Positions 2,208 to 28,696 of a stretch of DNA of 51,956 nucleotides are shown here, piece by piece. The notes beneath the pieces were generated by a model. The model made no database searches. It was not told the DNA's origin and worked only from the letters and a program-made list of their open reading frames with translations. Origin of the DNA: Candidatus Omnitrophota bacterium (GTDB taxonomy: Bacteria > Omnitrophota > Gorgyraeia > Tantalellales > Tantalellaceae); assembly GCA_043822245.1 (NCBI GenBank), contig JBDRBY010000055.1, forward strand, positions 1 through 51,956, read 5' to 3'. Numbering within the stretch: the first letter of the stretch is position 1; each line of letters starts with the position of its first letter. The position numbers were made by a program, and so were the translations under genes.

Positions 2208-2253
2208 GTTAATGATTATACCACATTTGAGGAAATATGATATACTACGTTTT
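2208..2253. promoter_or_regulatory. Back-to-back extended -10 promoters, both probably driving leaderless mRNAs
   Basis: Minus strand: TGgTATAAT (-10 at 2215-2220), 7 nt, then ATG at 2207. Plus strand: TGaTATACT (-10 at 2241-2246), 7 nt, then ATG at 2254. No Shine-Dalgarno fits on either side. Confidence 0.7.
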
Positions 2254-4414: not shown

Positions 4415-5038
4415 TTAGTATCTTTTTTGCGCCCTATAAGTTTTCGGCGGTGTATATGTTTTGGGAGGATTTACGGACCGGGCTGTCTGCCGAAGGGCTC
4501 TCTGTGTTCTGTTAAGATTGTCAATTTGCCTGAGATTTTTAAGACTTCGCTCAGTTTGCCGCATTTTATTGAAAGACTGAAGCTGTTTTAACTCGCGAAG
4601 CTGTTTTTGTGTTCTGTCAAAATTTTCCAAAGAAAGCTGTTGATTCGCATTTTGAAAAAGCGATGATAACACCGAGTTATCCAAATCTTCCAGTTTTTGT
4701 CCGTTAAACTCATAACTGGTCCCGCCCTGTCCATCCTCAACTTTGTTTAACCCGTTAATTCCGGCAGTGATATTTTGGTGGTACTGAAAAACTTCTTTTA
4801 GGTTCGCAATTATTTCTTCACGGGTTAATTCACCGATCTCAGGCGATTTCTGGGGCACGGCAACGGATTGTTCGGATTTTTCAAGTGGTACATCTTTTTT
4901 TTCTGCTGTTACAGTTACAGTTTCAGTTTCAGTTTTTGTTCTGTCCCAAAATGCTCCATACGCGGAATCAGCGAAAGGAAACGCGAAACAAAAACTTAAT
5001 ATCACAATTGCCAACAAACTAAAAAATTTTCTCATCAT
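4415..5038 (-). CDS. Hypothetical exported protein
   Basis: N-terminal signal peptide (MMRKFFSLLAIVILSFCFAFPFADSAYG), AGGAGA SD, Gln/Arg-rich helical C-terminus ending PPKTYTPPKTY. Confidence 0.8.
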   Translation of the reverse strand: MMRKFFSLLAIVILSFCFAFPFADSAYGAFWDRTKTETETVTVTAEKKDVPLEKSEQSVAVPQKSPEIGELTREEIIANLKEVFQYHQNITAGINGLNKVEDGQGGTSYEFNGQKLEDLDNSVLSSLFQNANQQLSLENFDRTQKQLRELKQLQSFNKMRQTERSLKNLRQIDNLNRTQRALRQTARSVNPPKTYTPPKTYRAQKRY

Positions 5039-14200: not shown

Positions 14201-17200
14201 GCTTGAGAGAAGGTTTGTAATTGAGATAATGAGGTTTTCTTTGATGATTTTGTCTTTTTCTGTTGTTGGTGATGGCGCATTGATTTTTGACAGCATAGTC
14301 TCAGCAAAATCATGAATGACGTTAACTAATCGTATCTTTACGGAAAGGTCTAAGTTGTTAAGTAAGTTTGCGAATTTTTCTATATCTTCAAAACACCGGT
14401 TCAAAATAATTTCATCGATTATCTGTTTAATTATGCCGGTATCTTCTTTATAAATGGTTTCAATATTGAGGATCTCTCTGGTTTTCCCTAAAACATCCTT
14501 AAAACTAAACTGTGTTTCATCTTCTCCGATGTTTTCTTTAAGCTTGCCCATTATGTTAATAATAATTTTGGCAGACACGTTTTGCCCGCGTTGCAGTTCT
14601 TGTCTAAAAAGCCCGTTAAGTAATAGTTTCGATGTGTTTATTCTTACATCCCCTAAAATCTTTTTTATTATTCCGGCCCTTTCGTTTGTGTCTGAAAAAT
14701 ATCTTTCAATCACACTGATAATTTTTTCATAGTACAGTCCTTTGCTGTACAACGCTATCAGTTCTTCAAGTTGTTTAAAATCATTCATCTCGAATTTTTC
14801 TACCTTGTCTATTTCTTTGTCTAATCTTTTTAAAAGTGTTTGCTCCTCAAATAGAATTTTGAGTTTGAGGAGGAAGGTGTTATCGGGATCTATAGATTCC
14901 TGCGTTCGCAAATATTTAAGGCCTCCATCTATAAGAACCTTGTAATCAACCTTTGGATTGCTTATAAGTGTTTTAACAATTTTAAGCACTGCATCTTGAA
15001 TCTCGTCACTCTTATTATTTATAGAATCCTTAATTAAATCGTTTAAAAAGCCTTCCAGACTTTTGTTTATTCCTTGTACGCGTTTATTGTACTCATCGTC
15101 TGTTTCGTTAGCACGCCGGGCTAAGTGTGAGGGAATAGTCCTTTCCAGCCACTGGAGCCATATAAGGTCAATACAATTCTTTGTTTCGACATTTCCACTA
15201 AAAGAAAACCGGTGTTTAAATAATTCCCGGTTGAGTTTCAAATCCACCTCGAAAAAATTCACAAGAAGCGGCTGGATTATGTTCTTTATAATCATCTTTC
15301 GCGCGTCAGGCTTATCAACATCTTTTAGTTGGAAATTTAACTGTTTATTAATTAAACTTTTTAGAGTCTCTTTTAACTTGTCTAACTCTTCCATTTTTCC
15401 TCTGTTAGTTAATTCGTTTACTATTTTATTTAAACCTGATATTTTCATTCTATGCCGCGTCGTAGTCTTTTCCATGGACAATGTACCAATAAGCGCTGCT
15501 TTTAATCCTGCTAAAGATTTATCAATTTCTTCGTGTTTTTTGATCCAATCTAAATGGTTTCCAATAAATTTACGCCTCTTTGTTCTTGGCCACGGGGCGC
15601 GTACGTTATAATTTTTGCGCATAAAAAGCACGTCAAACAATTGATTCAGACTTTGAATCGCTGTTGACATTTCTTTTTTTAAACCATCTTTATCCTTAAG
15701 AAGATTCTCGATATCTTTTTCTACAGCTTCGATTAGTCCATGCAAATGCGCTTCTCTGCCCAATCGAATATGCTTCACAATAGTATTTTTTCTCAGTTTT
15801 ATTTCAATAAGATGCCGATGGATCTTATCTAAAAGATTTTTGTCATCATTACTGAGCGGATTTCGTTCGGTTTCGTTTATCAGATAGACCCTGCTTGAGT
15901 AACGCAATACCGGGCGCCTAAAAATCGTGTTAATCACGCTTGCTATAAAATTCGGGTCAGTGGTTAAATAGCGCCAGAAGCTCTTGAAGCGCGATTGTGG
16001 TGTTTTTTGTAAAAGAGCGTTTTGGGCTTTGTAGTAATAGAATTCAGCAAGATTTTTTTTGTCATCTTCGGGTGTTTTGAATTTTTCCTTATACAATTCG
16101 GCAAGGTCAAAATAGAGTTGCGCGGGGTTTTGTTTTTCTTTTTTCAGTTCTTCTTTTTTGTCAAGTATCTTTCGATCAATTGACTTTTCTCTTTTAGAGG
16201 TCTCTTTTGGCAAAGGAATTGGGGTAATCGCTTTAGGTGTGTCTTTGTCCAAGTCTTTTTCTGCTTCTTTTAGATTGTCCAACTCTTTTTGTGCTTCATC
16301 TTTATTTTGAGCAAGCTCTTTAGCTATTTTGGACAGTTTTTGCAGTTTCGCGGTGTTGAGTTTTTGTTCGAATTGCCATTCGAAGTATTTTTTTGTTATA
16401 GATCCCGGATATTCGCCTTCGGCGAATTCCGGGATGACAGTGGTGGTGACTTCGGTGCTCTCGCTCGGGATGACAGTGGTGGTGACTTCGGTGCTCTCGC
16501 TCGGGATGACAGTGGTGGTGACTTCGGTGCTCTCGCTCGGGATGACAGTGGTGGTGACTTCGGTGCTCTCGCTCGGGATGACAGTGGTGGTGCCTTCGGT
16601 GCTCTCGCTCGGGATGACAGTGGTGATGGCGACTTCGGATGTGATAGTAGGGACAGGCCCCTGTGCCTGTCCGATTTTCTTATACACATTTTTGAGCAAG
16701 TCTCGCCAATTATCCGGGCGGCTATCCGGTGGAATCGCGAGGAGCGCTTCAACGATGATAAACTGATCTTCCTCACTTTTCCCTTCGATTTTAAAATCTT
16801 CATCATCAAGCGAACCAAGGATAACGTTTATTTCTTCCTGGGACGCGCCATTAACCTTTAAAAATCGTAAAAGTGTAAACTGTATGTTAAGCCATTGCTT
16901 CTCATCTTTCCATTTTATCGTTAATATCCTCTTTTTATTACGTTCTGTATTGAATTTTGCGGCTATTTCTTCAGCCTTAGCAAGATGTTTCTTTTTATTC
17001 TCATTTTTCTCTGTTTCACACAAATCAAGATAATGCTGAATCAAGTTTGCATCGTTTTCAAAATTAGGAGGTTTGAAATATAGTTTGACGGCTCTTACCG
17101 AAAAATAGACAACGGCAAAACTAAGCACTAAATTTATTGAAATAAACGCGGGCGTAAAAAACGGATAATTCAGTATGAACGGTAAGACTGATAAAACTTT

Positions 17201-20200
17201 AAGCCTGCCGGGAATCCACAGAAAAAAATTCGTATAGGACACCGCGGCAATAAACGCGCCCTGAATAAACAAAAGAAAACCGGCCGCAAACGCCATGGGT
17301 TTGCCGATTACCTGCCCTTTTTTCTCCCGCATTGTCAAAGGTCGTATTTTTTCACCGGCATTTTGTAAGCTTACTTTTAAAAAGGCGTTTTTTTCGTCTT
17401 CTGCCATTTTCAGAAAACGCTCTCTTTCTATCTTAGCTTTTATCACCCGTAGTGACGGTAAAATAATAAACTTGGTTATTATCGCGAGCGCTATAATTGC
17501 CGCGGCTATCCAAAATACGCTTATCCCGAATATCTTTGGAGTAAGAATCGTGCGCGTGATGTCAGCCGTGTATTGCGCGACTGCCGCGACGGCTTTAGCT
17601 TTCCTCGATGATCCAAATTTATTTAACACAAAAGCTGACACGCCTGTACCAAAATTACGCTTAAAAACATAACCTAAAGTTAAAACAACCGGCCATGCGT
17701 ATTTAAGAACGGATTTTATCTTTGGGAACCATTTACTTTCCGCTTTTTTGTTAAGGCTTTCAGCTAAGTTTTCGGCGTTTATGGCGAATTCGTTGTGTAG
17801 TTTGTGTTTGTCGGGGTTACTGGAAAAAATTTTATTGATGTATTTAAGGGCGGCTTGCCCGTCTTTGTCTTCTATCGCGAATTTTGCCAGAATTATCCGC
17901 ATTTCGTCGAGTTCTTTTGAAGTCGGCGGTTTCGCGAAAATTTTAAACCAAATCCGTTTAAAGACGTTTTGATTTTCGCCAAGCGCTTCTTTCGCCGCTT
18001 CTTTTGTTTCCTGTCTTAAATCTTTTTTTCCGCTTGTGAACGCGGCCATAGAATCAGTTTTTTTGTCTTTAATACCAAATCGTTTTTTATGATCGATTAT
18101 TTTTTTACCTGTTTTAGCAATATTTAAACTTAGTACTCTCTTTTCCTTTTTGCGCTGTTTTTTGTCATATTCGAGCGGTATGTGTCTATAAAGACGCAGG
18201 GCCATTTCGTAGTCTTTTAAGACTTGTTTCGGATCTTTTCCGTCTGAATCAAGAAGGGCATCTGCTGCTTTTTTCCGAATTTGTTCCGCGGTTTCTCCTG
18301 TAAAGCCTAAAATTTCTCGGGAAATGGCTTTTGAACGCTCTTTTTCAGGTTCAACAATTTTGTCTATTCTTTCGCGGAGAACGCGCCTGAGCCAGGGGAA
18401 TGCTTTTTTCTTGGGATGAACTAAATTTATCAGATTCGGGCCGAGTAGTGAAGAGCCTATCATCATTACCGGGAATAAGCGTTTGCCTAAGAGCTTGAAA
18501 CTCGCCTTTGACGTCCATCCTGAGTTGAAAATATTGGCTACGGCTGAAATCAGACTTATTTTATAAAAAATAAAAATCGTAAAAACAGCCAGAATAGCCG
18601 CGGTTGTGATTACAACGCCTTTCATAAATCTGGGATGTTTTGACTCTTCGGCTTTTGACCAGGCCTTTTTCCACAAAAGCAAGACTCCCGCGCCAACAAT
18701 AAAATTCGACGCGATTATCCCGCATTTTGTCATAAACGGGAAAGCTGAAAAACCTAAAATACCTACACCTACGAGGTATGGAAGTCCTACAAAAAGCGCT
18801 ATAATCACGCACGCTGAAACAACAAAGCGGCAAGTATTAGGATTTGGAGATAATTCAATCCATACCATTAAAGGTTCTAAAAACCTGTTTAACAAAAAGC
18901 GAAGCCGGTTGCCCTGATGCAAAGGTTTATGTACGGGCAATTCTGAAATCTTGCCGTTAATGTAATTTTCAGTAAATTTTGCGCAATTGCCTATTTTTAA
19001 GATTGCTTGTACCCCGCCGTCATTGCGAGGCCTCGAAGTGGCCGAAGCAATCTTTATTTCGTCAGGCGGAATATCGTTTAAAGTAAAAACATCGCCAAAT
19101 ATCGGGTCATTCTGTATTCCTTGGCCCTTTTTGCCACTTAATAACTCCGTCAAATCCATCATTGAAGGGTCGAATGTGCCGTGAACCCGCGCCTTTTCTT
19201 TTCCAAGAATATACGCGTACAACATAAAGTCTTTAGAGAATTCGCCCGGGCCAATGTCTTCCATAACGAGAAGATTGTCGGTTTTGTTGGCGATTAGTCT
19301 GCGGGAATTCCTATTAAATGCCAGGATGTTTGTTTTGTTAGACGTATTGGTTAGTTTTTCTGAGAGTTCTTTGTCATCAATGTCAGGATTTATCCGTTTC
19401 GCGGTAAACGCGACAGATTTCGCGGCTTTAAAACCGTCTTTAACCGAGATTATTTTAATGCCGTTAATTTCGACTTTATTAGTTTCCGCGTTAAAATGCG
19501 CGCTATTTACAGCAATAACTGTTTTTTTTTCGACTTTTGCCTGGGCGGCTTCATTTATTAAATCCTGCATAAGCGCGTCAAGATTGCCCGTAGTATCATC
19601 TCCGACAAGCAAGACCGTTTTGCCTTCTGGCGCTTCATATCCTGCCCTCCACAAGTCGCCTTCAATAAAAGGATCATCCTTAGTTTTTTTGCCAATATAG
19701 CGGACAACTATAACCCCGTCCCGCTCATAAACAAGTTTCGCTTTTGTAATTATTATTCGTGTCGTAATATTGCCATGTTCATCCTTCTCGCTCTGCGTGT
19801 CAAAGTCATCGATGATAACGGCTACCCCCCCGTCATCCTGAGCGAAGCGAAGGATCTCTTTTTCTTTTTTCACAAGCTCATCAATCGCCGCGAAATATTC
19901 CCTCTTATCCTCTTCTTCAGGTTTTTTGCCATAAACTGTAAGACTGCACACTACACCCTTAGGTTGGGGAATTGGCGGCACAGGAACCGGTACAGGTACT
20001 CCAGGCGCAGGTATCGACATACCACTCGCCGCTAATGCCGCCCCTGTCACCACGCTACTCATCGCGGCAGACATCTTTGCATCGCTTTCAATAGCGCTTT
20101 CTGTCTTTTTAAGAGCGTCCTTTTCTGCCTTTTTAATCTGCTCTTGCGTCTTTCTTTCTTCAACAGTAGCTCTATTATCAGGCTGGTATGCGCTTTCCGC

Positions 20201-23200
20201 GGAATAAGGCGTCTCATTAAATGTGTCCTTTTTTTCCCATACTGAATGTTTCCAACCTTGTTTGGAAGTAACGCTTTTTTCTAAAATACCTGTCGATATT
20301 ACAGTCCCAACTTCTACAGGCTTACTTCTTATAGGGCTTTCTTTTTTTTCATGATTTCCGCGCACTCTTTGCCACTTCGCGCTAAAATAATAAAAAATTT
20401 TGTCAAATACGCGCGTAATCTTCCCGCCAACCTTTGTTTTCTTAAACCATTTTAGCCACTTGCCCTGTTTGGAAATTTCTTTTAAAGCCTGGCTTTGAGA
20501 AGCCATCAACATATCTCCTGCTTCGTGTTTTTTTAGTAGTTCCGGTGTTTTTTTTGACTCATCATGCCAGTTTTCTTTGAGCACTTTCTCGTAAAAGGCT
20601 TCTGCAAATTTATCCCTGTATTTGTTGCCAAAAAGTTTTTTGGTTTGTTTATCAACAAATTTGGTATAGGTATAAAGCCTCTGTGGAATGTTATGATTGT
20701 GAGTCTTTGCCAGTGTTTTTGCCTGCTTTTTATTTAATATGGAGAGCAAGCCTGAAATTAATTTGCCCTCTGTCCAGTGAAGCATTTCAAAATCGAAAAT
20801 TCTTGTGCCCGCGAAATCCTTTTTAATCTGGCCATTTAATTTTTTCAGAACAGATTTAAACGATTTTTTGTTTTTTACGGCCAAATCTTCCAATAAAGCT
20901 GTTTTGCCGTTACCATTTTTGGCAGTAAACTTTTTCGCCAGAGAAAAGGCTATTCTTTGTTTATCTATTTCAAAGAATTCAAGGTGTTCTCTTAACTCCT
21001 TTATATTCTTCATGATTATTTCCTTTTGTTTTTCAGTGGTATTTTCTTTTTGTTTAGATAACGCTTTCAGATCCTTTTTGATTTCCGCGATTGCGCGCTC
21101 AAAGATCAGATCTATAATCTTTTCCGCTAAAAGCGGCGAAGCTGTTCCATTCTTTATTTCTCCATCTATATAGCGTTCTTCGATTACTTCGCTATACAGA
21201 ATTTTTTGCTTGAATGTTTCCTCATTCAGTTTTTCCCTTTCTTTGCGTTTTTTATCATCCAAACGGGCGAAATACGAACGTCTTATTCGTTCCTCTGAAT
21301 CCATCTTGTCCGCCTGTAGATACGCGAAACTTGCGAATATTTCCAGTTTTTTTTGTATTAAGACCAGAGCTTTCCTCTCCTCTTCATTGAGTGAATTCTT
21401 ACGAAGTTTTTTCTTCAATGTAATCCACTCATTCCTCGCGTCGTTATACGCAGTGCAGATTTTGTCACGCATTGTGCCGTAAGTGATTCGTCTTAATGTC
21501 GGGATTTTTTCCCACCAGGAAAGATGGAGTTCAACATTATGAAGGGCTTTGTCAATTACGTCACTGACTGTGCCTTCCTCTGACGGGTTGCGCCTGTCGA
21601 GGCTATAATTCTCATCCACATCCATAAGTGTATGCTCTGTAATTGAACCGGGATCTGTCCATCTGGCGGCCCTGCCTGCGGTCTGTGAACCGCGCCGCGC
21701 AGAGCTCATTTTGATATATGACTCCTGAAGGCCGTTAACTGCCTTTGTCATAATAATCTGAAAGGCATTCAGGAGTCTTTGTGGTTGTTTTTCCAAAGAA
21801 TTATCAAATGTTTTTAGCTTTTCCTTTGCCTTTTGCACAGCTTTTACTTCGGCATCCACGTTTTTTTTGCCAGCGCCGCGCGCGTTTTTAAGATTTACCT
21901 CCGCCTCAAAAACCGCTTTAAGATGTTCGCTTCCGGAAAACCCTGAGCCTGCCAGTTGTTCCATCCACACCCTGGCCCTTATTACATCCTCAATTTCAGC
22001 CTTCACTTTTGACTTTTTCAGAATTGACTTGGCATTATTCAAAGTGTCCGAATCTATGCTCAGCTTTAAGTCGTTCCGCACTTTTACACTTATAATCTCG
22101 TTTATTAAGTCTTCATCTCGGGCTAACTCATTTTTTTTAATCGCGGATTTTAGCGCCTTTTCTTTTTTTGCAAGATTAGTTTCAGCGGTTTGTCTCTCGT
22201 CATGCGCGGTTTTTAAGGCGTTATTATCGTTCCCTGCAAGCTGTTTTACCAGCTCTCTCAACGTTTCTTCAAGCTCTTCCTTGAGTTCCATCATTTCGAT
22301 GGAATCTGCTTTTGTACAGGTCCTTTCTCGAATTTGAGGATCAGTTACTAATTGCGCGCAAATCTTTTTGATATTGTCTAATAACGTTGTTGCAGTCGTA
22401 TTATTGTCACTTTCCGAAATAAAACTAATAATACTGTCAAAAATCTCTATGCCGTCTTCAATTTTCATAGGGCTCATGTTTATTGCCCTGCCTACAAGAT
22501 TACTGCCAATTAGAACATGCCCTGGCCTGGCTCCGTATTTTTCCGCTTTTGGCACGTCTTTGTTAACTGATATGAGATCTATGTTTCCATCAGGGATATC
22601 AAGCGCTTCTCTGATCTTGTGGTATATTTCCCTTGCCATGTCTCCCTTAGGAGCGATTATTGCTATTGGCGGGGAGTCAAATTTTTCCCGCAGGTCTTTT
22701 ATTTTCTTCGCGGTGTCTTCACAGAATTTTTCAATCCCTTCATCAAACTCGCCTGGAAGTTCAATGACAACCCTTTCATGCCTTCTGGGAAACTCAAGAA
22801 GATCGTCCTCATTTTTGTGAAATATAATGGATACTTCTCCCTTTGTCAGAGCCTTTGGCATGGTGCCGGAAGCCCCTGCTAAGTGCTCAGCTTTTACACT
22901 GTCAGTAACATTAACTCCATTTACCCAGCTTTTGATCTCATTATCCTCGTTTATTGTTACATTAGCTTCCGCGTCATCGCGCGGAATAGTGTGTTTTGCT
23001 TCAATAAACATGCCTAACTCAGAAAGCCTTTGGTCAGTGACAGGCCCGTTTGGAGAAATCAGACCAATCCTATGATAAAAACCCCGTTCACTTATTTTTT
23101 CTGACAGTTTTTCTTTTGCGTCTGATACTGATAAATCCGCTATTACGTAATCCTTTCCCAAAACATACGCGATTTCTACGGTAAGCGCCCTTCGAAAATA

Positions 23201-26200
23201 TTCTTCAAATTCTTCATATTCCATTTCATAACCGCTTATTCTGCCGTTTGCCTTTTCATGAAGCGCTTTGACCATTTTTTTGCCGAATTTTGTGAGCCAC
23301 ACATTATGGATATTCACACCTGTCCTGTCCACGACACAAATAGAGGTGTCCAATTCTTCGTTTACATCGGAAAATAATGTTATTGTTTTTTTTCCTAAAC
23401 GTGCTACATCTGTTTTTAGGTTGTTTTTTAAGCAATACGCGATTATGGCTAAGTTTTGATGAAAAACCTTTAACGGTTCTTTTACCGGCCCGCCAAATTC
23501 CGCGATTTGAAAGCTTGTAAGAAATTGATCAAGTAAAATATCATCTATCTCGTCGAAATTCACAAAATACAATTCTATATCTCGTGTCTGGCTGTTATAA
23601 CCTTTGCCAAAAATTTTCTTTTTGCTTTGTTCGTCCCGCTGTGTTAAAAACGCCATTTCAGGGAACGCGATGTAAGTAACTCCAGGGGTGGTAAAAGCCG
23701 CTGTAAGTTCTGCTTCTGTGCTTTCATTGCTTACCACTCGTACCGACTTTTTAAATCTGGCGCTTTGCAAAAACCGCCTGTAAACCCCGCCCATGCCGTC
23801 ACCTTCTTTTTCGTCCCTGGCATTACGTTGAGCGAGTTCTTTGTCTTTCTCATAAGAAATAACAGGCCTGCCTGTGTTCTCATTTTCCGTTCCAAATCCT
23901 TCAAAATTAAGGGCCCTTAGAATATTACCAAAAGTCGCGCCGGAACCTTTGCCCTCACCGGTAGGGAATTGAATAATCTTTCCCTGGGAGAGTTTTATAC
24001 CCTCAAGGAGTCGCAGATCCTGAGTTTCCATTGTATAGCCTTTTTCCATGATAAGAGCCAATAAAAACATGCCTGATGCAATCTTTATAAATTCAGCGTG
24101 GGCTGTGCCTGAACGTTCGGGATAATAAATATTTTCACCGTGTTCCTTAACCAATTCTTCTACGCTTCCCAGCCCTTCTACTAACTTGTTATTTATCGCA
24201 TTGCCAAACACATTAAGTTTGCCATAAATATTGCCACCTTCATAAAAATGCTTCTGGCGCAGATGAAGACAGTTGTTTTCTATTTCTTTTGGCGTCGAGC
24301 TTATTTCACGAAGCCATTCATTTACCTGATCCTCAGCGTTCTTTTGAACCATAGCGCCTTCTTTTGTATGCGCCGCTTGTTCCTGATTCGTGTCATATTC
24401 CGAAGCCGCTTGTTTTAACCGAAATCCGTATTCAAGCCTTTCATCTATGTCTTTTTTTGTAAACCGGGATTGCAGATATTTTTCAATGTTGAACCCTCCG
24501 TTTGTAACCTGTTTGGCAAAGATCATATAGTCTTTTTCAGCTTGTTTCGCGGCTTTATCCGCGTTGTCCGCGGCAATTCGACATATAGCGTCCGCGTTTT
24601 TGTTCATCCTATCGCTTTTGTTTTTGCCCACCGCAAGATATTTCTCTTTATGTATTTCATGTCCTTCTTGCAGTGTTGTAAACTTGTTATACATTATTTT
24701 GAACTTTTCAATCGCCTTATCCGGGCTTAATTTGGCGTTCTGGCGGGCTTCTTTTTGGATGGCTTTTATGTCTTCTCTTTTTAAAGAAACAAGTTCACCT
24801 TCTAATTTATCAATTTCGATTGTTAATTTCTCATTCTGAGGCCCCTTCGGGGCCTCAGAATGACGGAGGAGTTTTTCCCTTGCAAGGTTTATTTCTGTTT
24901 CTAACTCTCTAATTTTGTCATTAAGTTCTGCCTTTAATTTATTGGCTTCTTTTTTTGAAAGATTTAAATCTGAAAATTTAACCCGCAATTCATCAGGCTT
25001 AGACTTTATTTCCCAAACCGTTTTTTGAGCTTTTTGGATGTGGTGTTCTATTTGCTGAATATTTTCTTTTTTCTTCTTTTCCAGGATTTCGTTGGCTTTT
25101 TGTTTAAAAAGGTTCGAAACTCGCACACGTGCCATCGTTAAAATCAGATTATGCATAGTACGATCTTCGAGAATCAACTCCTTTAACGCCGGAATATCCA
25201 TATTCTGTAATTCCATCAGAGAATAAGCATTTAACCCAGAAATCTCTCCATTGGTATCTTTTTGGCCATATCGTTGCAACTGTTCACTGCCGGCAATAAT
25301 ATGAGCGGCGCGAGAAATAGGAATTTTATTTTTAGCTAAAATTTTCCACTTTTTAGTTTTCCTATTATTTTTTAGTTCAGCTTCAATTGTTTTTACCCAA
25401 AAATGTTCCCGTTGTTCATGAAATATAGCTTCTTCTATTACCCGGTCATATTGATCACCCATCATGTCATTAAATTCGTTACTGTAGTTTGTTACAATGA
25501 CTAAGACTTTTTTACTGTTAATTGTGGTTTCAAACCGGTAAGAAGCGGCAACCTTGCCAAGATTCTCTTTTATTACCCTCACCTCATCTACAAAATTTCC
25601 CACAATTGACGTATCTTTCAGAATTGTAGTGAAATTAGTTCCGGCTGTTTTTTTATAAGCTTTTATTTTTTTATCTGTAAAAAAGTCGCGTACAACCTGG
25701 CCTGTTTTTTGGTCAGTGCCAATGCGTTTAAGGGAAAAGCCGTAAGAAAAAGCAGTGATGTTGTATGTCGTAAAAAGGCTAAGCGCTTTTTGAAAAAACG
25801 AGGTTAGGCGGTCTTTGAGGGTGGGGGTAAAGATTGCTTCGGGCACTTCGTGCCCTCGCAATAACACAGTGGTGTCCTCTGCCCCTCGCGATGACACGGG
25901 AGATGTGGTTAGATCCTTCGACTCGGCCATTTGGGCCTCGCCCGGTATGACGCTGGTGGTAAGTTGGGTGACGGTTAATTGGGGGGTGGTGGTTTCTTCG
26001 TCTTGAGTTAGGGTTACTTCGAACTGGCCGAAATTGCCGCATTTAAAGGTGACTTTATCTTTTTGGGTAGATACTGAAATATCTAAATTTGTTTTGAGTC
26101 GCTCAATAAACTCTTTAGCGGTGTCGTAATCACTCTGGCCCGCTTTTTTTTCTAAGAGGCTGTCCAAATATGTGTCTTTAACATTGGTATCTTTATTGCG

Positions 26201-27919
26201 CAAGATTGACGCGCCTAATATTGGCACAATCAGCTCATAGAGGCGTTCAAAAAGCTGTTCTTTTGTTATCCCCACGCCTTTAAGAATGGTTTCATCAATG
26301 GAAAGCACTGACCAAAGCGCGAGGTAGTCGCCGGATTTGACGTATTTTTCGTATTCCGCGGCTTTGTTTGTCAGGATTGTTACGTATGGTCTTTTGCCGG
26401 TTTTTGTGTTGAAACGAGGCAAAAGGATCAAATAGGACACGTTATCCGACTTTAAAATGTCTGTTATGCCTCTTGTATGAAAACCGCCTGTTACAACTGC
26501 CGCGACATCCACGTTTTCTTTTCGCATTTGTTCTATGGTGTTCTCGACCATTTTTTGGTTGCGCTCTGTGGCGGCTTTGTAGAAGGTTATGGCGTTGGGG
26601 AGGGTGTTAAAAATAACAATAGATTCCCGCCTGTGCCCGTCAGGGTACTTTCGCGGGAATGACAGAGAATCTGGGAATGACAGAGAGTATTTTTTGTGCG
26701 ACTCGTCCAGAAATTTGTAAAATAATGTTTCGCTAAATTCGCCAATGTTTGTCATCAGGTATTTAAGCTGGCCGCTGGTTAGGCGGATGTTGTATAAATC
26801 GTGAAGGATTTCGGTTTTTTTTAACAGGTCGGTAAGGGTCTTTTCTTCTTCATTTCTGTAAAGCTTCTCTCGTATTCGACATTCGTAGTTGTCGATCTCG
26901 TCCATAAGCTGGGCGATGTCGATTGATTCGTAGAGCGTTACATAGTCGCAAAATTTTTCTAGGTTTAAGTAGTGGTGAGCCAACCCTTCGGCCTTTGCCA
27001 GTATCAACAGATATGTATAAAACTGGCTCTTTGAGATTTTGCCTAACTTAAACGACAGACTCTTGAGAACAAGCTCTTCTAAGGTGTTTCTGCCCACTCT
27101 ATCGGTAAGCAAATTAAGAAGTTCGTCTCTTTCCGTGTTAACCGCGATGTAATCTATTGTTTTTTCCGCCTGAACTGCCTGTTCTAAGGCTGTGATATTT
27201 TGACAATCTTCCGTCGCTATCCCGTGTTTTAAGCCGATCACTTTGACAAAATCCCATCTTTTTGTAAAGCGTGTGCCATTGTTTCCATTTAACACGGAAT
27301 TCCGGTTAAGCAGTTTCAGATCTTCTGAAAAAACATAATCCTCTAAAGCGTATAGCGCTTCGCGTAAAGAGTTGATCTCTTTCAGATTCTCTTCTTTTTT
27401 CTCTAAAAGGCTTAAAAACGCGTAATAGTTTTTGAGATATAATTGGCTGTCATCTATACCGTATAATTTAACAGGCGTCTTAGAAAGCGCGGCAAAAAAC
27501 TCACCCGCTGAAATTTTGCCTTCACGCATAAGATAATCAGCACCGATACGCTTTGCCTCTTCATCTTCAAAGGCTGAAATTACGCTTGTGTCTATATAAC
27601 CCTCAGAGCCTTCTATGCCCACAAAACGCACGTCATAATTAACTAAAAGGTTATCTAATACGTCAACAATTGACTTTTGAGTACCGTAATTATCATGAAT
27701 ATCTTTGATATTGATTATAAGCTTTTCGCTGTCAGTTTTATTGATATACTTGGTTATCGCGATATCACTCGGGATTGAGAATTGATTTATATTGAGTTCG
27801 TGACGGGGCACTTCTTGAACAGCAGACGGACGTGCTCCAACCTCGGCAAACCCTGTCTGCTCAATACAAAAAATAAGCGCCACAATGAGCGCTATTATGC
27901 GTTTATGTGCCTTTTTCAT
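5246..27919 (-). CDS. Giant 7,557-aa membrane/exported protein: signal peptide, Tiki/TraB/ChaN/EreA-like domain, degenerate SecA ATPase, TM blocks, TPRs, coiled coils
   Basis: 22.7-kb uninterrupted ORF. Signal peptide MKKAHKRIIALIVALIFC. DIH/GIEG/YGID/RN/GGFH motifs at about 26400-27730. SecA motifs at about 21600-24030. Hydrophobic helices at about 18450-18880, 17080-17700, 11050-11260 and 6410-6720. TPRs at about 11640-12050 and 8300-9000. Confidence 0.9.
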   Translation of the reverse strand: MKKAHKRIIALIVALIFCIEQTGFAEVGARPSAVQEVPRHELNINQFSIPSDIAITKYINKTDSEKLIINIKDIHDNYGTQKSIVDVLDNLLVNYDVRFVGIEGSEGYIDTSVISAFEDEEAKRIGADYLMREGKISAGEFFAALSKTPVKLYGIDDSQLYLKNYYAFLSLLEKKEENLKEINSLREALYALEDYVFSEDLKLLNRNSVLNGNNGTRFTKRWDFVKVIGLKHGIATEDCQNITALEQAVQAEKTIDYIAVNTERDELLNLLTDRVGRNTLEELVLKSLSFKLGKISKSQFYTYLLILAKAEGLAHHYLNLEKFCDYVTLYESIDIAQLMDEIDNYECRIREKLYRNEEEKTLTDLLKKTEILHDLYNIRLTSGQLKYLMTNIGEFSETLFYKFLDESHKKYSLSFPDSLSFPRKYPDGHRRESIVIFNTLPNAITFYKAATERNQKMVENTIEQMRKENVDVAAVVTGGFHTRGITDILKSDNVSYLILLPRFNTKTGKRPYVTILTNKAAEYEKYVKSGDYLALWSVLSIDETILKGVGITKEQLFERLYELIVPILGASILRNKDTNVKDTYLDSLLEKKAGQSDYDTAKEFIERLKTNLDISVSTQKDKVTFKCGNFGQFEVTLTQDEETTTPQLTVTQLTTSVIPGEAQMAESKDLTTSPVSSRGAEDTTVLLRGHEVPEAIFTPTLKDRLTSFFQKALSLFTTYNITAFSYGFSLKRIGTDQKTGQVVRDFFTDKKIKAYKKTAGTNFTTILKDTSIVGNFVDEVRVIKENLGKVAASYRFETTINSKKVLVIVTNYSNEFNDMMGDQYDRVIEEAIFHEQREHFWVKTIEAELKNNRKTKKWKILAKNKIPISRAAHIIAGSEQLQRYGQKDTNGEISGLNAYSLMELQNMDIPALKELILEDRTMHNLILTMARVRVSNLFKQKANEILEKKKKENIQQIEHHIQKAQKTVWEIKSKPDELRVKFSDLNLSKKEANKLKAELNDKIRELETEINLAREKLLRHSEAPKGPQNEKLTIEIDKLEGELVSLKREDIKAIQKEARQNAKLSPDKAIEKFKIMYNKFTTLQEGHEIHKEKYLAVGKNKSDRMNKNADAICRIAADNADKAAKQAEKDYMIFAKQVTNGGFNIEKYLQSRFTKKDIDERLEYGFRLKQAASEYDTNQEQAAHTKEGAMVQKNAEDQVNEWLREISSTPKEIENNCLHLRQKHFYEGGNIYGKLNVFGNAINNKLVEGLGSVEELVKEHGENIYYPERSGTAHAEFIKIASGMFLLALIMEKGYTMETQDLRLLEGIKLSQGKIIQFPTGEGKGSGATFGNILRALNFEGFGTENENTGRPVISYEKDKELAQRNARDEKEGDGMGGVYRRFLQSARFKKSVRVVSNESTEAELTAAFTTPGVTYIAFPEMAFLTQRDEQSKKKIFGKGYNSQTRDIELYFVNFDEIDDILLDQFLTSFQIAEFGGPVKEPLKVFHQNLAIIAYCLKNNLKTDVARLGKKTITLFSDVNEELDTSICVVDRTGVNIHNVWLTKFGKKMVKALHEKANGRISGYEMEYEEFEEYFRRALTVEIAYVLGKDYVIADLSVSDAKEKLSEKISERGFYHRIGLISPNGPVTDQRLSELGMFIEAKHTIPRDDAEANVTINEDNEIKSWVNGVNVTDSVKAEHLAGASGTMPKALTKGEVSIIFHKNEDDLLEFPRRHERVVIELPGEFDEGIEKFCEDTAKKIKDLREKFDSPPIAIIAPKGDMAREIYHKIREALDIPDGNIDLISVNKDVPKAEKYGARPGHVLIGSNLVGRAINMSPMKIEDGIEIFDSIISFISESDNNTTATTLLDNIKKICAQLVTDPQIRERTCTKADSIEMMELKEELEETLRELVKQLAGNDNNALKTAHDERQTAETNLAKKEKALKSAIKKNELARDEDLINEIISVKVRNDLKLSIDSDTLNNAKSILKKSKVKAEIEDVIRARVWMEQLAGSGFSGSEHLKAVFEAEVNLKNARGAGKKNVDAEVKAVQKAKEKLKTFDNSLEKQPQRLLNAFQIIMTKAVNGLQESYIKMSSARRGSQTAGRAARWTDPGSITEHTLMDVDENYSLDRRNPSEEGTVSDVIDKALHNVELHLSWWEKIPTLRRITYGTMRDKICTAYNDARNEWITLKKKLRKNSLNEEERKALVLIQKKLEIFASFAYLQADKMDSEERIRRSYFARLDDKKRKEREKLNEETFKQKILYSEVIEERYIDGEIKNGTASPLLAEKIIDLIFERAIAEIKKDLKALSKQKENTTEKQKEIIMKNIKELREHLEFFEIDKQRIAFSLAKKFTAKNGNGKTALLEDLAVKNKKSFKSVLKKLNGQIKKDFAGTRIFDFEMLHWTEGKLISGLLSILNKKQAKTLAKTHNHNIPQRLYTYTKFVDKQTKKLFGNKYRDKFAEAFYEKVLKENWHDESKKTPELLKKHEAGDMLMASQSQALKEISKQGKWLKWFKKTKVGGKITRVFDKIFYYFSAKWQRVRGNHEKKESPIRSKPVEVGTVISTGILEKSVTSKQGWKHSVWEKKDTFNETPYSAESAYQPDNRATVEERKTQEQIKKAEKDALKKTESAIESDAKMSAAMSSVVTGAALAASGMSIPAPGVPVPVPVPPIPQPKGVVCSLTVYGKKPEEEDKREYFAAIDELVKKEKEILRFAQDDGGVAVIIDDFDTQSEKDEHGNITTRIIITKAKLVYERDGVIVVRYIGKKTKDDPFIEGDLWRAGYEAPEGKTVLLVGDDTTGNLDALMQDLINEAAQAKVEKKTVIAVNSAHFNAETNKVEINGIKIISVKDGFKAAKSVAFTAKRINPDIDDKELSEKLTNTSNKTNILAFNRNSRRLIANKTDNLLVMEDIGPGEFSKDFMLYAYILGKEKARVHGTFDPSMMDLTELLSGKKGQGIQNDPIFGDVFTLNDIPPDEIKIASATSRPRNDGGVQAILKIGNCAKFTENYINGKISELPVHKPLHQGNRLRFLLNRFLEPLMVWIELSPNPNTCRFVVSACVIIALFVGLPYLVGVGILGFSAFPFMTKCGIIASNFIVGAGVLLLWKKAWSKAEESKHPRFMKGVVITTAAILAVFTIFIFYKISLISAVANIFNSGWTSKASFKLLGKRLFPVMMIGSSLLGPNLINLVHPKKKAFPWLRRVLRERIDKIVEPEKERSKAISREILGFTGETAEQIRKKAADALLDSDGKDPKQVLKDYEMALRLYRHIPLEYDKKQRKKEKRVLSLNIAKTGKKIIDHKKRFGIKDKKTDSMAAFTSGKKDLRQETKEAAKEALGENQNVFKRIWFKIFAKPPTSKELDEMRIILAKFAIEDKDGQAALKYINKIFSSNPDKHKLHNEFAINAENLAESLNKKAESKWFPKIKSVLKYAWPVVLTLGYVFKRNFGTGVSAFVLNKFGSSRKAKAVAAVAQYTADITRTILTPKIFGISVFWIAAAIIALAIITKFIILPSLRVIKAKIERERFLKMAEDEKNAFLKVSLQNAGEKIRPLTMREKKGQVIGKPMAFAAGFLLFIQGAFIAAVSYTNFFLWIPGRLKVLSVLPFILNYPFFTPAFISINLVLSFAVVYFSVRAVKLYFKPPNFENDANLIQHYLDLCETEKNENKKKHLAKAEEIAAKFNTERNKKRILTIKWKDEKQWLNIQFTLLRFLKVNGASQEEINVILGSLDDEDFKIEGKSEEDQFIIVEALLAIPPDSRPDNWRDLLKNVYKKIGQAQGPVPTITSEVAITTVIPSESTEGTTTVIPSESTEVTTTVIPSESTEVTTTVIPSESTEVTTTVIPSESTEVTTTVIPEFAEGEYPGSITKKYFEWQFEQKLNTAKLQKLSKIAKELAQNKDEAQKELDNLKEAEKDLDKDTPKAITPIPLPKETSKREKSIDRKILDKKEELKKEKQNPAQLYFDLAELYKEKFKTPEDDKKNLAEFYYYKAQNALLQKTPQSRFKSFWRYLTTDPNFIASVINTIFRRPVLRYSSRVYLINETERNPLSNDDKNLLDKIHRHLIEIKLRKNTIVKHIRLGREAHLHGLIEAVEKDIENLLKDKDGLKKEMSTAIQSLNQLFDVLFMRKNYNVRAPWPRTKRRKFIGNHLDWIKKHEEIDKSLAGLKAALIGTLSMEKTTTRHRMKISGLNKIVNELTNRGKMEELDKLKETLKSLINKQLNFQLKDVDKPDARKMIIKNIIQPLLVNFFEVDLKLNRELFKHRFSFSGNVETKNCIDLIWLQWLERTIPSHLARRANETDDEYNKRVQGINKSLEGFLNDLIKDSINNKSDEIQDAVLKIVKTLISNPKVDYKVLIDGGLKYLRTQESIDPDNTFLLKLKILFEEQTLLKRLDKEIDKVEKFEMNDFKQLEELIALYSKGLYYEKIISVIERYFSDTNERAGIIKKILGDVRINTSKLLLNGLFRQELQRGQNVSAKIIINIMGKLKENIGEDETQFSFKDVLGKTREILNIETIYKEDTGIIKQIIDEIILNRCFEDIEKFANLLNNLDLSVKIRLVNVIHDFAETMLSKINAPSPTTEKDKIIKENLIISITNLLSSIAYTEDKDIVLPMSVLNLYKDHLKPLKQNRKKEAQQKLWDAKEWEYKEYLLQAAIFEAEEKGEDTIKEYEKIIELFKEEVEDPEVKVTVERLISLNNRIITAYKAIARIYANVGNTAQSELFTGKANKWIALHPQQTVVTEHGKAWEAYIKSLENTIKAKPDDPEVRKQYADALVSDYIDALQDYTKQYELKQRIEKEKKQIENRIDKLNKQKSDLEEEIKEFRIELRTSEIRIDEMRKAGSEYNTEWDELARKGKKTKSEISEKGESLNKIEANLKAQQERLKTIKKSLENQEKDTKKAEKKKNDRKKGLTPPVIPGTAEAAPIVIPETAEAASIVIPGEGEARDPGSIINNALNKYLDAIELPDESKKEGQKTLKDTKEKLIAYVYHNPDRFPELIKIINERLNRIKYTEPNRKKRYELEKRLRKLRLELAESAFGLLIITRTFLQNSNQENVTIGRVSFTAIEVFEYIQDQYKQSNKTSKLAWFLLTIYADTATPRLLRVIALSDFIDLIYEQLNLSTRKDKELPSFDKFFREVLQKVFKLPKIAEMQDAETLFRGKAVNALSIFYDWKKLPKEGKEAWKNEKHVLLTNALSVLESVYEILKARHLDRVDLSGKNTGITGITVKFELLSNIKIDSALKDVIAKIAPENKTKAEFISELLSAMKEANCDAWHKMNGKKKRLFLVSQIPAFAGMTGGAGMTVEIETYDPERHPEQELMDEADAIWQKARKTTDFKEFHRAIAKYKEAIEIAPENSTAHYKLAKAHHYLKHFDEALKEARAAIEKDPFNFESHRLIIDIHRILSDPLKLYKAYISLTEAYKKKGEKERENRDEYKALENFKKALETLEIAEDIAPHRAESYVLRAELSVSLQGVAPAVSLRGREAPEAILHNINKILTWQDYSRVRKFLSFRKKRRIPMEITDSLVLRARLIRAKIRSENQEVKKAFSDYKKAEKMKDNSKETFLGMAQGYGAKYKIASSRKAFILKILPLSGALIFLSACTGAKLAFYSGVFNIVKGYVFATLPYVVLTLIIVVPGVLIGHYLYKYIFVLPKTYKTRAYTYYNKTIEKDKTDIELYRKAVNFAKEAGDKEKAGAYAKRAIDNVKVEAIVNKTDEARTKRFLNEMSMAALNGLKEGIQKDLKWRVRDFILSPSKYIQRLRGALTKIDSAEKVAEKMFDSTEKIREQSALKSFKKKAHKRIVKLHTWFWWNISSFLRKKHRYNARLSHARVLIAQGTKIDLAIRILKDLRGKSAAPSVEKDLFEAYVAQKAYDKALEIEPNNRKIQIKKKVSDFQHYTETVPESKQEIIEDLEKALSENILSDDEKLEIHGLLILYLILYYELRDPVKTEHHKRQQNILLRKKDSVIEEYYLSSDIKKQEQARQKNCKEIFMLSRKIDKLTSEKKKKEQKIKTPKSKGMKTALEARIATIEAELAQIQIGEVTDRIPLNNIRSIHILREQVKNNPGEKDGLICFLRWVIENKKITNANDSALVKLMLAELLGPEEEFARLINDIRPVLNRLTVSEKMRFYLLDVKNTLEPVSTLDKVKVETGLLITCIQTLYQTMDSRYDTKYDNDIISLFIQAITKWKEQTKAKNTWPSEILNFLSHENLRPLLENNPAKAKELLTIILDAKFLFDESMVPLLNALLKSPKLFDDIKAHILQLLYAQIRETTLSDTNLGNVDDLVMTLKKMCKQKVFTVYAMALLNRIYRVQKKRIRAWWMLSKQTKGVMFFQQGKEYQKDQKLASAYDSFKKAEKNGYKTADFYKKFGIVTKKLAEQKSKWNMLENVEKLFLDALNYMKKAKELNPDLEKDEDFIKELISLYVSISRNTGSFAETKEKYLTFLKRRISYLEELYKLSPTSFTSNAKNREAVHICLEYLNLLFFGMKQRRQNANKWILARLIAFQAINNVETETEENTREELYRALLIDENCAIAWLGLRDLALKSGNKKEADQYYENAVKVEPNFAQKTDKIDIAKEYIERGQFSDAKAILKQVEGPESDRLLSEITEIEKKVNNTILRYANATERQDQFKEEKTVIDKQLKDLRNYKSDHAGELREGKKRQIEARIRNLEDSFENLLGPKEKHILAREYMQKEREEHAKWEKDPVRKREKERDKRNEQVQELLKTREYDLNSAVTRAKEKNKLLSLSGLTGQSNPIINFILNLAENALQKSEFLKADILITKALEFDDKNARAQKLNKTLQEKKDEIAELEKKTEGETKEAREKRIKDFRETKEKEKYEAIENNISGATPDELKDLFGYWQRNKEKFKEKLLDKTLNIKENLKPIAKKTYDTALAKELINLFFLSDGALHAMLSALLSRTKYGKDLIFIRGILPSFNEQFFKKLDQYLNGEPHAQQFFIQFNSKNSKLLKTIRDSIILMRNRNFDFIDKGYRDAIHFCQAMLGCMKKDFKTAILSSTKCLEGDYRLKAQRLLVYLYKSENEEVFAWHTFYAMHREAPYDELTQDAEKEFSGIKYDKDIRDKQLLYGLKHLVGAPFVERGIYFGLPLFLSLGMIVFVPRELSLVTFLVTITIGQIISGSIFIKRHNGSRFTASIITGLNLLLPYSLFLMKTSPQWLFVMSVIIHMAVNLYAFTRNIKVTKKFMPYGTIEKVPAKPAEPIAVVQIEGADETMLQKLSEAYPDIRFAPSVISSEDFGPSREILPQRFLIDMSPEDVRDNINGMVKYVRKAAFVEKYPYYAGLDSGSVAKLRDERLKNAIITITKEFEQETFINNTIDARIEAAFAGNYASDLLSEAENMAMAQKVEDEAVEKITELQANNLIPARQAVIYDLRDMPESVFSSMLPAVKRLATKDPNLYMCLVDPQGRLQEALDADNILNVSIPEGQEVDVIAIARELLLEKSRLRSDEFPLSAISIVTAESKTEEFIPHLRTDGKERANFVIVGQKSQESKELLNMIPAIALMGILKRYESGPEQANVVAVECSDEILRTIGALAEILLMPITRFNLSEMISREIASLIQTAVSV
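6217..6257 (-). repeat. In-frame GTCAT-tagged palindromic element (family C-like)
   Basis: + strand AGATTTCTCGACTCGGACCAAAGTCCTCGCTCGAAATGACA; translated VISSEDFGPSREI. Confidence 0.7.
7736..7764 (-). repeat. In-frame GTCAT-tagged palindromic element (family E)
   Basis: + strand AGATTGTCCGG-TCAAG-CCGGACAATGACA, perfect 9-bp stem; translated SLSGLTGQS. Confidence 0.8.
11533..11598 (-). repeat. In-frame palindromic element (family B) plus 27-bp arm duplication
   Basis: AGATTGCTTCGGGCGCTTCGCGCCCTCGCAATGACA; GCAATGACACGG at 11560 and 11587; translated VSLQGVAPAVSLRGREAPEAI. Confidence 0.85.
12094..12138 (+). repeat. In-frame palindromic element (family A, dRS3-like) plus 18-bp arm duplication
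   Basis: CTGTCATTCCCGC at 12094 and 12112; the second continues GAAAGCGGGAATCT. Translated IPAFAGMTGGAGMT. Confidence 0.85.
13154..13259 (-). repeat. In-frame palindromic element (family D) plus 33-bp tandem duplications
   Basis: AGATCCCGGG..GGGCTTCGCCC..CCCGGGATGACA; CCGGGATGACA at 13183, 13216 and 13249; translated VIPGTAEAAPIVIPETAEAASIVIPGEGEARDPGS. Confidence 0.9.
16400..16638 (-). repeat. In-frame palindromic element (family D) plus 36-bp tandem array (5 full units + partial)
   Basis: Hairpin at 16400-16439; CGGGATGACAGTGGTG at 16430, 16466, 16502, 16538, 16574 and 16610; encodes (TTVIPSESTEVT)n. Confidence 0.95.
16647..16672 (+). repeat. In-frame GTAG-tagged REP
   Basis: GTAG-GGACAGGC-CCCTGT-GCCTGTCC, perfect 8-bp stem, next to the 36-bp array; translated GQAQGPVPT. 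Confidence 0.75.
19018..19053 (+). repeat. In-frame palindromic element (family B, opposite orientation)
   Basis: CGTCATTGCGAGGCCTCGAAGTGGCCGAAGCAATCT; translated IASATSRPRND. Confidence 0.85.
19831..19857 (+). repeat. In-frame palindromic element (family C, opposite orientation)
   Basis: CGTCATCCTGAGCGAAGCGAAGGATCT; translated ILRFAQDD. Confidence 0.85.
25831..25951 (-). repeat. Cluster: family B element, 30-bp arm duplication and a family C/D-like element, all in frame
   Basis: AGATTGCTTCGGGCACTTCGTGCCCTCGCAATAACA (25831-25866); CCCTCGC at 25853 and 25883; AGATCCTTCGACTCGGCC..GGCCTCGCCCGGTATGAC (25911-25951). Confidence 0.8.
26621..26686 (-). repeat. In-frame family A element with expanded loop plus 18-bp arm duplication
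   Basis: AGATTCCCGC-[22 nt]-GCGGGAATGACAGAG; GGGAATGACAGAG at 26655 and 26673; translated SLSFPDSLSFPRKYPDGHRRES. Confidence 0.8.
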
Positions 27920-28033: not shown

Positions 28034-28438
28034 TCACATTATGTTAATTCCTGCTTGTCTAAATCCCTTATCAAAGGAAAATGCCATATCTATCCCTATA
28101 TCTTCCATTATGCAAAAACATGAAACATCTGTAAAACTAAATTGTTTATCACGATACTTTTGATAACATTCCCATGCCCTTTGAAAATAATCCGGAAAGA
28201 CGTTTACAATTTTAACTATTTTGCTCTCTAATATCGCCGTCCCAGCTAAAACCGATTCTCGGTGACTTCCGCGCACCATTATGGTTGTTATGGTTTCATC
28301 TACAACATAATCCGATGTATAAATTTGAATCTTGCCTCTTTTAATCTCGTTGTATAGGCGTACCGACTTTTCATTATTGATATCATTCCGTACAAAAAGC
28401 GCTACCCATCCGCTTGTGTCAACAAAAACGTTTTCCAT
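28034..28438 (-). CDS. vapC: VapC-family PIN-domain ribonuclease toxin
   Basis: VFVDTS, DYVVDET, SFTD and FSFDKGF acidic PIN motifs; 134 aa; AGGAG SD; directly downstream of a small RHH gene. Confidence 0.9.
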   Translation of the reverse strand: MENVFVDTSGWVALFVRNDINNEKSVRLYNEIKRGKIQIYTSDYVVDETITTIMVRGSHRESVLAGTAILESKIVKIVNVFPDYFQRAWECYQKYRDKQFSFTDVSCFCIMEDIGIDMAFSFDKGFRQAGINIM

Positions 28439-28453
28439 ATTTTTTTCTCCTCT

Positions 28454-28696
28454 CTACTCGTATAAGTAGCGATCATGCTTAACTGACGCATCATCAACAT
28501 TAAGCTTTATCTTACCGATTGCCTTAGACAGGACATCATTGTCCCAATTGACTTTCTTCTCTTTCAATTTTAGAAAACGGTCAATGGCATTTCGTATTAG
28601 CTCTGATACTGCTAAATGTTCCCTTATCGCTTCAAGTTTAAGCCTCTTGAGCTGTGCTTCTTCAATATAAACCTGAGTTCTGTGCAAACTGCTCAT
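28454..28696 (-). CDS. Ribbon-helix-helix (CopG-like) antitoxin, VapB-type
   Basis: HRTQVYI beta strand, then helices with SELIRNAIDRFL; 80 aa; AGGAGG SD; 15 bp upstream of the PIN gene. Confidence 0.85.
   Translation of the reverse strand: MSSLHRTQVYIEEAQLKRLKLEAIREHLAVSELIRNAIDRFLKLKEKKVNWDNDVLSKAIGKIKLNVDDASVKHDRYLYE

Follow-up and report, generated by a model that had tools for sequence, protein, structure and literature searches.

How do bacteria with genomes of 1–2 Mb produce proteins that range from thousands to more than 100,000 residues, and how do they insert and export them? The main published clue to the export of giant proteins is that they contain built-in SecA-like modules, and here we describe a SecA-derived module encoded on contig JBDRBY010000055.1 (C55) of a Candidatus Omnitrophota bacterium (assembly GCA_043822245.1; 1.64 Mb in 82 contigs, 98% complete). 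The whole contig, 51,956 nucleotides long, was analyzed and is referred to as the window. It contains two giant open reading frames (ORFs), both on the minus strand and in head-to-tail arrangement: P0001 (5246..27919, 7,557 amino acids (aa)) and P0002 (28880..51904, 7,674 aa). Residues ~1270–2135 of P0001 (21515..24112; all features of P0001 and P0002 are on the minus strand) are almost certainly a true SecA homologue. The explanation that best accounts for the results as a whole, and that we hold to be about equally likely to be right or wrong, is that this module is a diverged SecA core that would serve as a cytoplasmic, membrane-tethered clamp with impaired ATP hydrolysis. P0001 has zero internal stops under translation table 11, and we therefore rejected the possibility that it is an artefact of stop codon read-through.

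Identification of a SecA homologue in P0001

The original prediction for this locus had quoted nine short strings from P0001 that follow each other in the order known from SecA. Indeed, a string search located all nine in P0001, where they span aa 1313–2092 (21644–23983) in the order quoted. They are the Walker A motif or motif I GKIIQFPTGEGKG (aa 1313–1325, 23945..23983), LAQRNA (aa 1362–1367), TYIAFPEMAFLTQRD (aa 1415–1429), the DExD motif II FDEIDDILLD (aa 1455–1464, 23528..23557), KDYVI (aa 1589–1593) and FIEAKH (aa 1638–1643), which are stem motifs inside an insert at the position of the preprotein cross-linking domain (PPXD) of SecA, motif III LAGASGT (aa 1680–1686, 22862..22882), motif V VLIGSNLVGRAINM (aa 1802–1815) and motif VI SARRGSQTAGRAARWTDPGS (aa 2073–2092, 21644..21703). 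Motif II was also placed by alignment, and motifs III and V by both the alignment A2 (see below) and hhalign.

The evidence for homology comes from profile comparisons. We used a family alignment of five rows without any canonical SecA (A1), an alignment of 38 rows of which 15 are canonical SecAs (A2) and an alignment of 15 full-length canonical SecAs from the same class (A4). The comparison of A1 with A4 in hhalign aligned 429 columns, starting shortly ahead of Walker A and reaching motif V, with a probability of 99.6 and an E value of 4.9e-24. The Pfam family SecA_DEAD (PF07517) matched a 951-aa piece of P0001 with 30.0 bits (E 3.9e-7, cut-off 24.6); with a 4,000-aa piece the score was 24.5 bits, just below the cut-off, and SecA_DEAD was the sole family found in the first 4,000 residues. 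The only sequence in the PDB matched at E ≤ 1 was Thermus thermophilus SecA (2ipc_A, E 5.2e-5, residues 77–250). When the genome's own SecA was searched with the family hidden Markov model (HMM), it was matched with an E value of 5.4e-13 in three collinear pieces, corresponding to NBD1, to the segment that leads back from the PPXD and on through motif V, and to motif VI, the last of which was aligned to motif VI of the genome's own SecA with 8.4 bits. On the basis of the SecA_DEAD score above the cut-off, the match to 2ipc_A and the hhalign E value of 4.9e-24, we rejected a chance origin of the motif series.

In A2, the module is collinear with SecA and consists of NBD1, the PPXD-position insert and NBD2, i.e., the same order as in canonical SecA, with motifs I (Lys), II, III, V and VI collinear as well. 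Its identity to the canonical SecA rows is 20–23%. Where canonical SecA has GEGKT (Walker A), DEVDS (motif II), DVDYVV and QAIEAKE (PPXD stem), GMTGT (motif III) and AGRGTDI (motif V), P0001 has GEGKG, DEIDD, KDYVI, FIEAKH, GASGT and VGRAINM, respectively, and in motif VI AGRAARWTDPGS stands opposite the canonical rows. The PPXD region was aligned to the P0001 insert both in hhalign and in A2.

Predicted structure of the module

The AlphaFold2 (AF2) model of aa 1270–2135 built with A2 had a mean pLDDT of 81.4 and a pTM of 0.77. It shows an alpha/beta insert of ~205 aa that separates motif II from motif III at the PPXD position (aa 1475–1679, 22883..23506, mixed alpha/beta, between the model elements E200–205 and E411–415) and a second RecA-like lobe. 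The first half of NBD2, up to and including motif V, occupies 22475..22861. An all-helical insert of ~240 residues then splits NBD2 between motifs V and VI (aa 1820–2062, 21734..22462, model helices H551–H793), which agrees with the long helical insert that had been read from the letters. This insert is present yet variable in the relatives P0004 and P0005, described below, and the canonical SecA rows are gapped there.

A Foldseek search of the PDB with this model gave 37 matches at E ≤ 0.001. Among the matches listed, all down to rank 34 were SecA or SecA2 (E 4.5e-19 to 3e-7), the SecA2 structures being 6t4h, 6sxh and 4uaq; the structure comparison that had been proposed as a check thus supports the SecA assignment. 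When normalised to the target, the TM-score reached 0.67 with 3bxz, the DEAD motor on its own, and 0.58 with 5k9t (SecA-N68). SecA and SecA2 were followed by DinG and XPD (E ≥ 3.7e-4). Since DinG, XPD, DEAD-box and RecQ helicases are also among the fold matches, with E values from 3.7e-4 upwards, the module might be viewed as a superfamily 2 nucleic-acid helicase that is no relative of SecA. We rejected this identity, which is extremely improbable in view of the SecA and SecA2 structures that fill the listed ranks above, because stretches specific to SecA, namely the PPXD stem and the region before motif V, align with P0001, and SecA_DEAD is the only Pfam family matched on the module.

Several results weigh against a clamp built on a SecA core. 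The Pfam families SecA_PP_bind and P-loop_SecA had no match on the module, so that of the two families named for the HMM search in the original prediction only SecA_DEAD was recovered, and the NCBIfam SecA models matched weakly, with 17.1 bits against a cut-off of 862. The AF2 model computed from the five-row family alignment was uninformative (pLDDT 44.4, pTM 0.25), and the fold match of the A2-based model is not independent of sequence homology, because A2 holds 15 canonical SecA rows. The query-normalised TM-scores were only 0.29–0.43, as expected for a protein with a large insert and mobile lobes. An extracytoplasmic placement of the module, considered below, would count on the same side, because ATP is absent outside the cytoplasm.

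Relatives, intermediates and genomic setting

When 1.84 billion representatives were searched exhaustively with HMMER, only four relatives of the module were recovered, P0003–P0006, with 30–35% identity. Word-index protein searches found only the module itself among 2,616 candidates and nothing among 8,000 candidates, and a search for related loci that used the module found zero relatives in genome_contigs. The subfamily is narrow: of 301 genomes sampled from the phylum, five have it if G000 is counted; the share is 3 of 16 within the same taxonomic family and 1 of 15 within a single further family. The motifs I, II, III, V and VI are conserved among the relatives at 29–35% identity.

SecA_DEAD as such is widespread in the class (79 of 81 sampled genomes), and in 15 of the 81 (counted from the table) it scored above its cut-off inside open frames of at least 1,500 aa, the longest of which has 45,379 aa. 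The P0001 module is among the weakest of the SecA_DEAD matches in the class, with 29.8 bits compared to up to 276.7 bits in other giant frames. An HMM made from the 15 canonical SecAs matched 25 of 30 sequences representing SecA-like stretches of the giant frames of related genomes, with scores from 765 bits down to 25.9 bits for the P0001 module, which took rank 24 of 25. Two of these stretches, L008 and L007, link the extremes: they match the P0001 module with 1.4e-8 and 5.3e-9 and canonical SecA with 210 and 149 bits, respectively.

A low score and few relatives might be expected of a decaying relic that has no nucleotide-dependent role and acts as a structural spacer only. This explanation gains from the 29.8 bits, from the loss of the Walker A Thr discussed below and from the finding of just four relatives in so large a search. 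Against it, the motifs are still recognisable and collinear at 29–35% identity, the motif VI residues R806, R814 and A816 are invariant in A1, including the arginines, and the acidic DExD residues are invariant in the 38 rows of A2 (E188 and D190 strictly, D187 nearly so). We therefore regard a relic as quite unlikely.

The same genome encodes a housekeeping SecA on contig C70 (412.7 bits) and a single SecY on C4. A third SecA_DEAD-like match (44.4 bits) lies on the plus strand of contig C26 (C26:18357–19100), within a frame that stays open for at least 2,413 aa and is truncated by the contig end; the match scored 62.1 bits with the canonical SecA HMM, from NBD1 to motif V. The C26 frame starts with the same N-terminal module as P0001. 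In P0001, this module covers ~530 aa (aa 7–532, 26324..27901, delimited by blastp) with a signal-like start; it recurs at the N-terminus of six further large ORFs in this genome (on C51, C54, C31, C8, C26 and C82), which match it with 28–38% identity and E values of 1e-37 to 6e-84 in blastp. Pfam gave no match for it, and the Atlas clusters nearest to it are hypothetical proteins of 540–669 aa with Candidatus Omnitrophota as the commonest phylum (0.95).

Giant frames can also carry more than one SecA-like module. In L010 (G053:C13:64600–75000), a 4,934-aa frame, there are two well-preserved modules with 276.7 and 227.1 bits, and the 45,379-aa frame of G141 (C1) has two SecA-like copies ~68 kb apart, at 1,197,128 and 1,265,408.

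Missing parts and the altered Walker A motif

The description of the module as a complete SecA holds for NBD1, the PPXD-position insert and NBD2, all of which are present, and fails for the scaffold/wing, which was not detected: SecA_SW (PF07516) had no Pfam match in P0001 and matched genome-wide only the housekeeping SecA on C70, and the hhalign alignment to canonical SecA, as shown, stops at motif V. Therefore, we conclude that the module comprises the motor core and a PPXD-like part and is not a complete SecA. In canonical SecA, the scaffold/wing part carries the two-helix finger, and this part is undetectable in P0001 because the profile alignment ends at motif V and SecA_SW is unmatched. 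In contrast to canonical SecA, the module also has no detectable C-terminal zinc tail, has an insert in NBD2 and GKG in Walker A, and is embedded in a membrane protein. It resembles SecA2 in being an additional SecA-type ATPase in one genome, whereas SecA2 proteins are soluble and SecA-sized. SecA2 keeps the scaffold domain and an intact Walker A.

The Walker A sequence of the module is GEGKG (aa 1321–1325), with the Lys retained and Gly in place of Thr at aa 1325, as had been noted from the letters. G54, K55 and T56 are nearly invariant in A2 (at least 90% of the 38 rows), and the family rows shown all have Thr. The change is genuine in the assembly. In the public run X1, which may be the source sample, a contig covers 23797–24100 and thus the Walker A codons with 0 differences; contigs from four runs of public DNA data span parts of the module only. 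Conserved despite this change are the Lys of motif I, the acidic residues of DExD, the Arg of motif V (R542, nearly invariant in A2) and the two arginines of motif VI, which has retained its GRxxR.

In P-loop NTPases, the hydroxyl following the Walker A Lys binds Mg. Because Gly replaces this Mg-binding hydroxyl residue, hydrolysis is expected to be slow or nil, in the P0001 copy only, and ATP hydrolysis by the module is probably impaired, as judged from its motifs. The P0001 copy would then be a nucleotide-binding clamp or a regulatory module and not a processive motor, because of the slow or absent hydrolysis. In such a mechanism, the module would act on the cytoplasmic side as a nucleotide-controlled polypeptide clamp, tethered by P0001's own transmembrane helices in place of the scaffold/wing, and would help parts of the same giant chain, or client proteins, to be inserted or exported. 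This cytoplasmic clamp role is a tentative assignment, to which we give somewhat less than an even chance.

The original prediction had gone further and proposed a translocation motor that is encoded in cis and threads its own protein, which corresponds to a hypothesis already published for this class of proteins (West-Roberts et al. 2023, bioRxiv 10.1101/2023.11.21.568195). A fully active motor of this kind would hydrolyze ATP and pass the rest of the protein to which it belongs, or an effector part, through either SecYEG or the transmembrane bundle of that protein. The retained motor lobes and PPXD-position insert would suit this role, as would the conserved motif I Lys, DExD and the arginines of motifs V and VI; moreover, with a separate housekeeping SecA in the genome, the P0001 copy is free for a special task. 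The loss of the Mg-binding hydroxyl together with the Walker A Thr, and the lack of a detectable scaffold/wing and hence of a two-helix finger, speak against it, as would the signal-like N-terminus described in the next section, which may place the module outside the cytoplasm. The loss of the hydroxyl residue, which sets P0001 apart from all other family rows shown, and the possible extracytoplasmic placement would weigh against a processive motor in particular. In sum, we consider an active motor unlikely.

Transmembrane segments and the side of the membrane

Transmembrane segments were searched for with the Kyte-Doolittle scale at a threshold of 1.8. The first cluster in P0001 lies at aa 3032–3605 (17105..18826) and consists of five segments of at least 1.8; further segments appear by eye at lower stringency. 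The transmembrane helices predicted downstream, about eight in number, are therefore present in part at this threshold, yet the cluster begins ~940 residues past motif VI and so is not directly adjacent to the module. The order of module, ~900 aa and transmembrane cluster recurs in the relatives P0004 and P0005, which is a further point in favor of the active motor discussed above.

Upstream of the module, a segment at aa 8–26 (27842..27898), following MKKAHKR, reads by eye as a signal-like sequence or anchor, and no Kyte-Doolittle segment of at least 1.8 was found between aa 27 and aa 3031 of P0001. A signal-like N-terminus without a strong transmembrane segment before aa 3032 could place the module outside the cytoplasm. 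Given that P0001 starts like a Sec signal, with a hydrophobic core, the module might even be exported together with the N-terminal 3,000 residues and act beyond the producing cell, for example on the surface or in the interior of a prey or host cell, with ATP of the target or with none. Published work lends some plausibility to this possibility: Zhang et al. (2012) count SecA-like, helicase-related domains as one kind of effector domain in Amoebophilus, and West-Roberts et al. (2023) link giant Omnitrophota proteins to predation.

Other features point to the opposite side of the membrane. By eye, Lys and Arg are abundant in the residues that precede the first transmembrane cluster and in the loops that follow the second and the fourth helix of that cluster, and such basic residues flanking the cluster on the side of the module would fit a cytoplasmic location. 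The relative P0003, whose sequence opens with Met, lacks a signal-like N-terminus ahead of the same module. Finally, a conserved, weakly hydrophobic segment near aa 705–730 (Kyte-Doolittle average ~0.9, hand calculation), which is more hydrophobic in P0005, may be a second transmembrane helix that returns the chain to the cytoplasm. Taking these sequence features together, we lean towards a cytoplasmic location of the module and regard its export to a target cell as decidedly improbable.

A possible second module in P0002

P0002 may carry a still more degenerate SecA-like copy at aa 5450–6200 (33305..35557), a region that was delimited by Atlas feature search and by the motifs of A3, the alignment of its relatives. 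The look-alike motifs ECSEGKT, FDEIEQT, GLGATAEG, GPLVTGSNIAKC and AIQQACRWS follow each other in SecA order, and in the Atlas feature search the best matches of the region were all SecA clusters (0.91, 188 of 256 shared). Of the 301 genomes searched, 5 others contain relatives of the region, and CGEGKT, IDExE..Q, GGTIEG, VTGSN and IQQAxRW are invariant among them in A3. The comparison of A3 with A2 in hhalign gave a weak match (E 7.5e-4, probability 25%). The region itself had no match to Pfam or PDB sequences or in the comparisons with A1 and A2, its piece was unmatched by the canonical SecA HMM among the 30 sequences searched, and the A3 profile matched in the PDB only the P-loop of XPB/Rad25 (E 0.047).

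Other features of the locus

Besides SecA_DEAD, the sole Pfam family above its cut-off in P0001 is TPR_19 (E 5.1e-8), which marks a TPR region at aa 5310–5368 (11816–11992). Between the two giant genes, a gene pair on the minus strand (28034–28696) encodes an 80-aa ribbon-helix-helix protein (RHH_1, E 2.7e-5) and then a 134-aa PIN protein (E 1.3e-11); by its domains, this pair looks like a toxin–antitoxin system of the VapBC type. The remaining flanking genes encode a DEAD/DSHCT (Ski2-like) helicase (282–2207, minus strand), a Peptidase_Mx-like protein (2206–3318, plus strand) and an ATP-grasp enzyme of the D-Ala-D-Ala ligase type (3287–4297, plus strand). A 207-aa ORF at 4415–5038, just downstream of P0001, had no Pfam match.

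The window also contains several kinds of repeats. A 28-nt tandem repeat (9.7 copies, 99% match) occupies positions 1–272 at the contig end, just past the 3′ end of the helicase gene. P0001 itself contains in-frame tandem arrays on the minus strand, one with a 36-nt repeat (6 copies, 12-aa unit TTVIPSESTEV) at 16394–16664 and one with a 33-nt repeat at 13171–13275. Short, GC-rich, palindrome-like repeats of the families D3, D5–D7 and D9 lie within both giant ORFs without breaking the frame, at sites that include 11532–11574, 25830–25872, 26638–26669, 40704–40735, 42732–42763 and 50349–50391, plus others; they encode strings such as SLRGHEVPEAI and VIPAKAGIQ, and a similar string is present in the relative P0005.

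Discussion

Divergent SecA DEAD and preprotein-binding domains in giant proteins of Omnitrophota have been described by West-Roberts et al. (2023), who report that these domains lack the scaffold and wing and coexist with a normal SecA, and who propose self-export of the giant protein. The P0001 module is very probably a member of this class. It shares with the proteins described there a highly diverged SecA_DEAD and PPXD-type module within a giant protein with multiple transmembrane segments, the lack of a scaffold/wing and a normal SecA encoded elsewhere in the genome. It differs from them in the size of its host (7,557 aa, while that study centred on proteins of more than 30,000 aa) and in its position: the P0001 module precedes the first transmembrane cluster, whereas the paper places SecA-related domains after C-terminal transmembrane anchors in some types. 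The ~240-aa insert in NBD2 and the exchange of the Walker A Thr for Gly are not mentioned in the main text of that paper, where the word 'Walker' occurs 0 times. The class is thus already in print, and what is new here is an unusually diverged instance with the Walker A change and the ~240-aa insert. In a further study, Nielsen and Lui (2026, bioRxiv 10.64898/2026.06.07.730766) describe an architecture cluster of 20 proteins with PF07517 among 916 long proteins.

Additional SecA_DEAD proteins are also known from other bacteria. In Planctomycetes, Verrucomicrobia and others, secondary proteins with SecA_DEAD but no SecA_SW have been described near type I secretion genes (Kamneva et al. 2015, PMC4452313). 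P0001 resembles them as an additional SecA_DEAD protein that lacks SecA_SW and accompanies a canonical SecA. In contrast, the proteins described by Kamneva et al. stand alone and are encoded in a conserved locus with the type I secretion genes, and we saw no type I secretion-related neighbours among the genes within our window.

One may speculate that Omnitrophota giants carry private, scaffold-less SecA motors acting in cis, whose PPXD clamp would feed downstream segments of the protein across the membrane. The P0001 module would then be a hydrolysis-dead, nucleotide-gated clamp and the P0002 copy a more decayed one, so that one locus would display stages on the way from a motor to a pseudoenzyme. 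We think it rather improbable that this extended scenario is correct in full.

The P0001 module leaves the published picture of giant-protein export unchanged. It offers a small and tractable example, with ~870 residues, all motor motifs mapped and a lineage-specific loss of the Walker A hydroxyl next to relatives that keep it. The natural series formed by P0001, its relatives and the possible copy in P0002 could be used to probe whether SecA-like modules of giant proteins need ATP hydrolysis.

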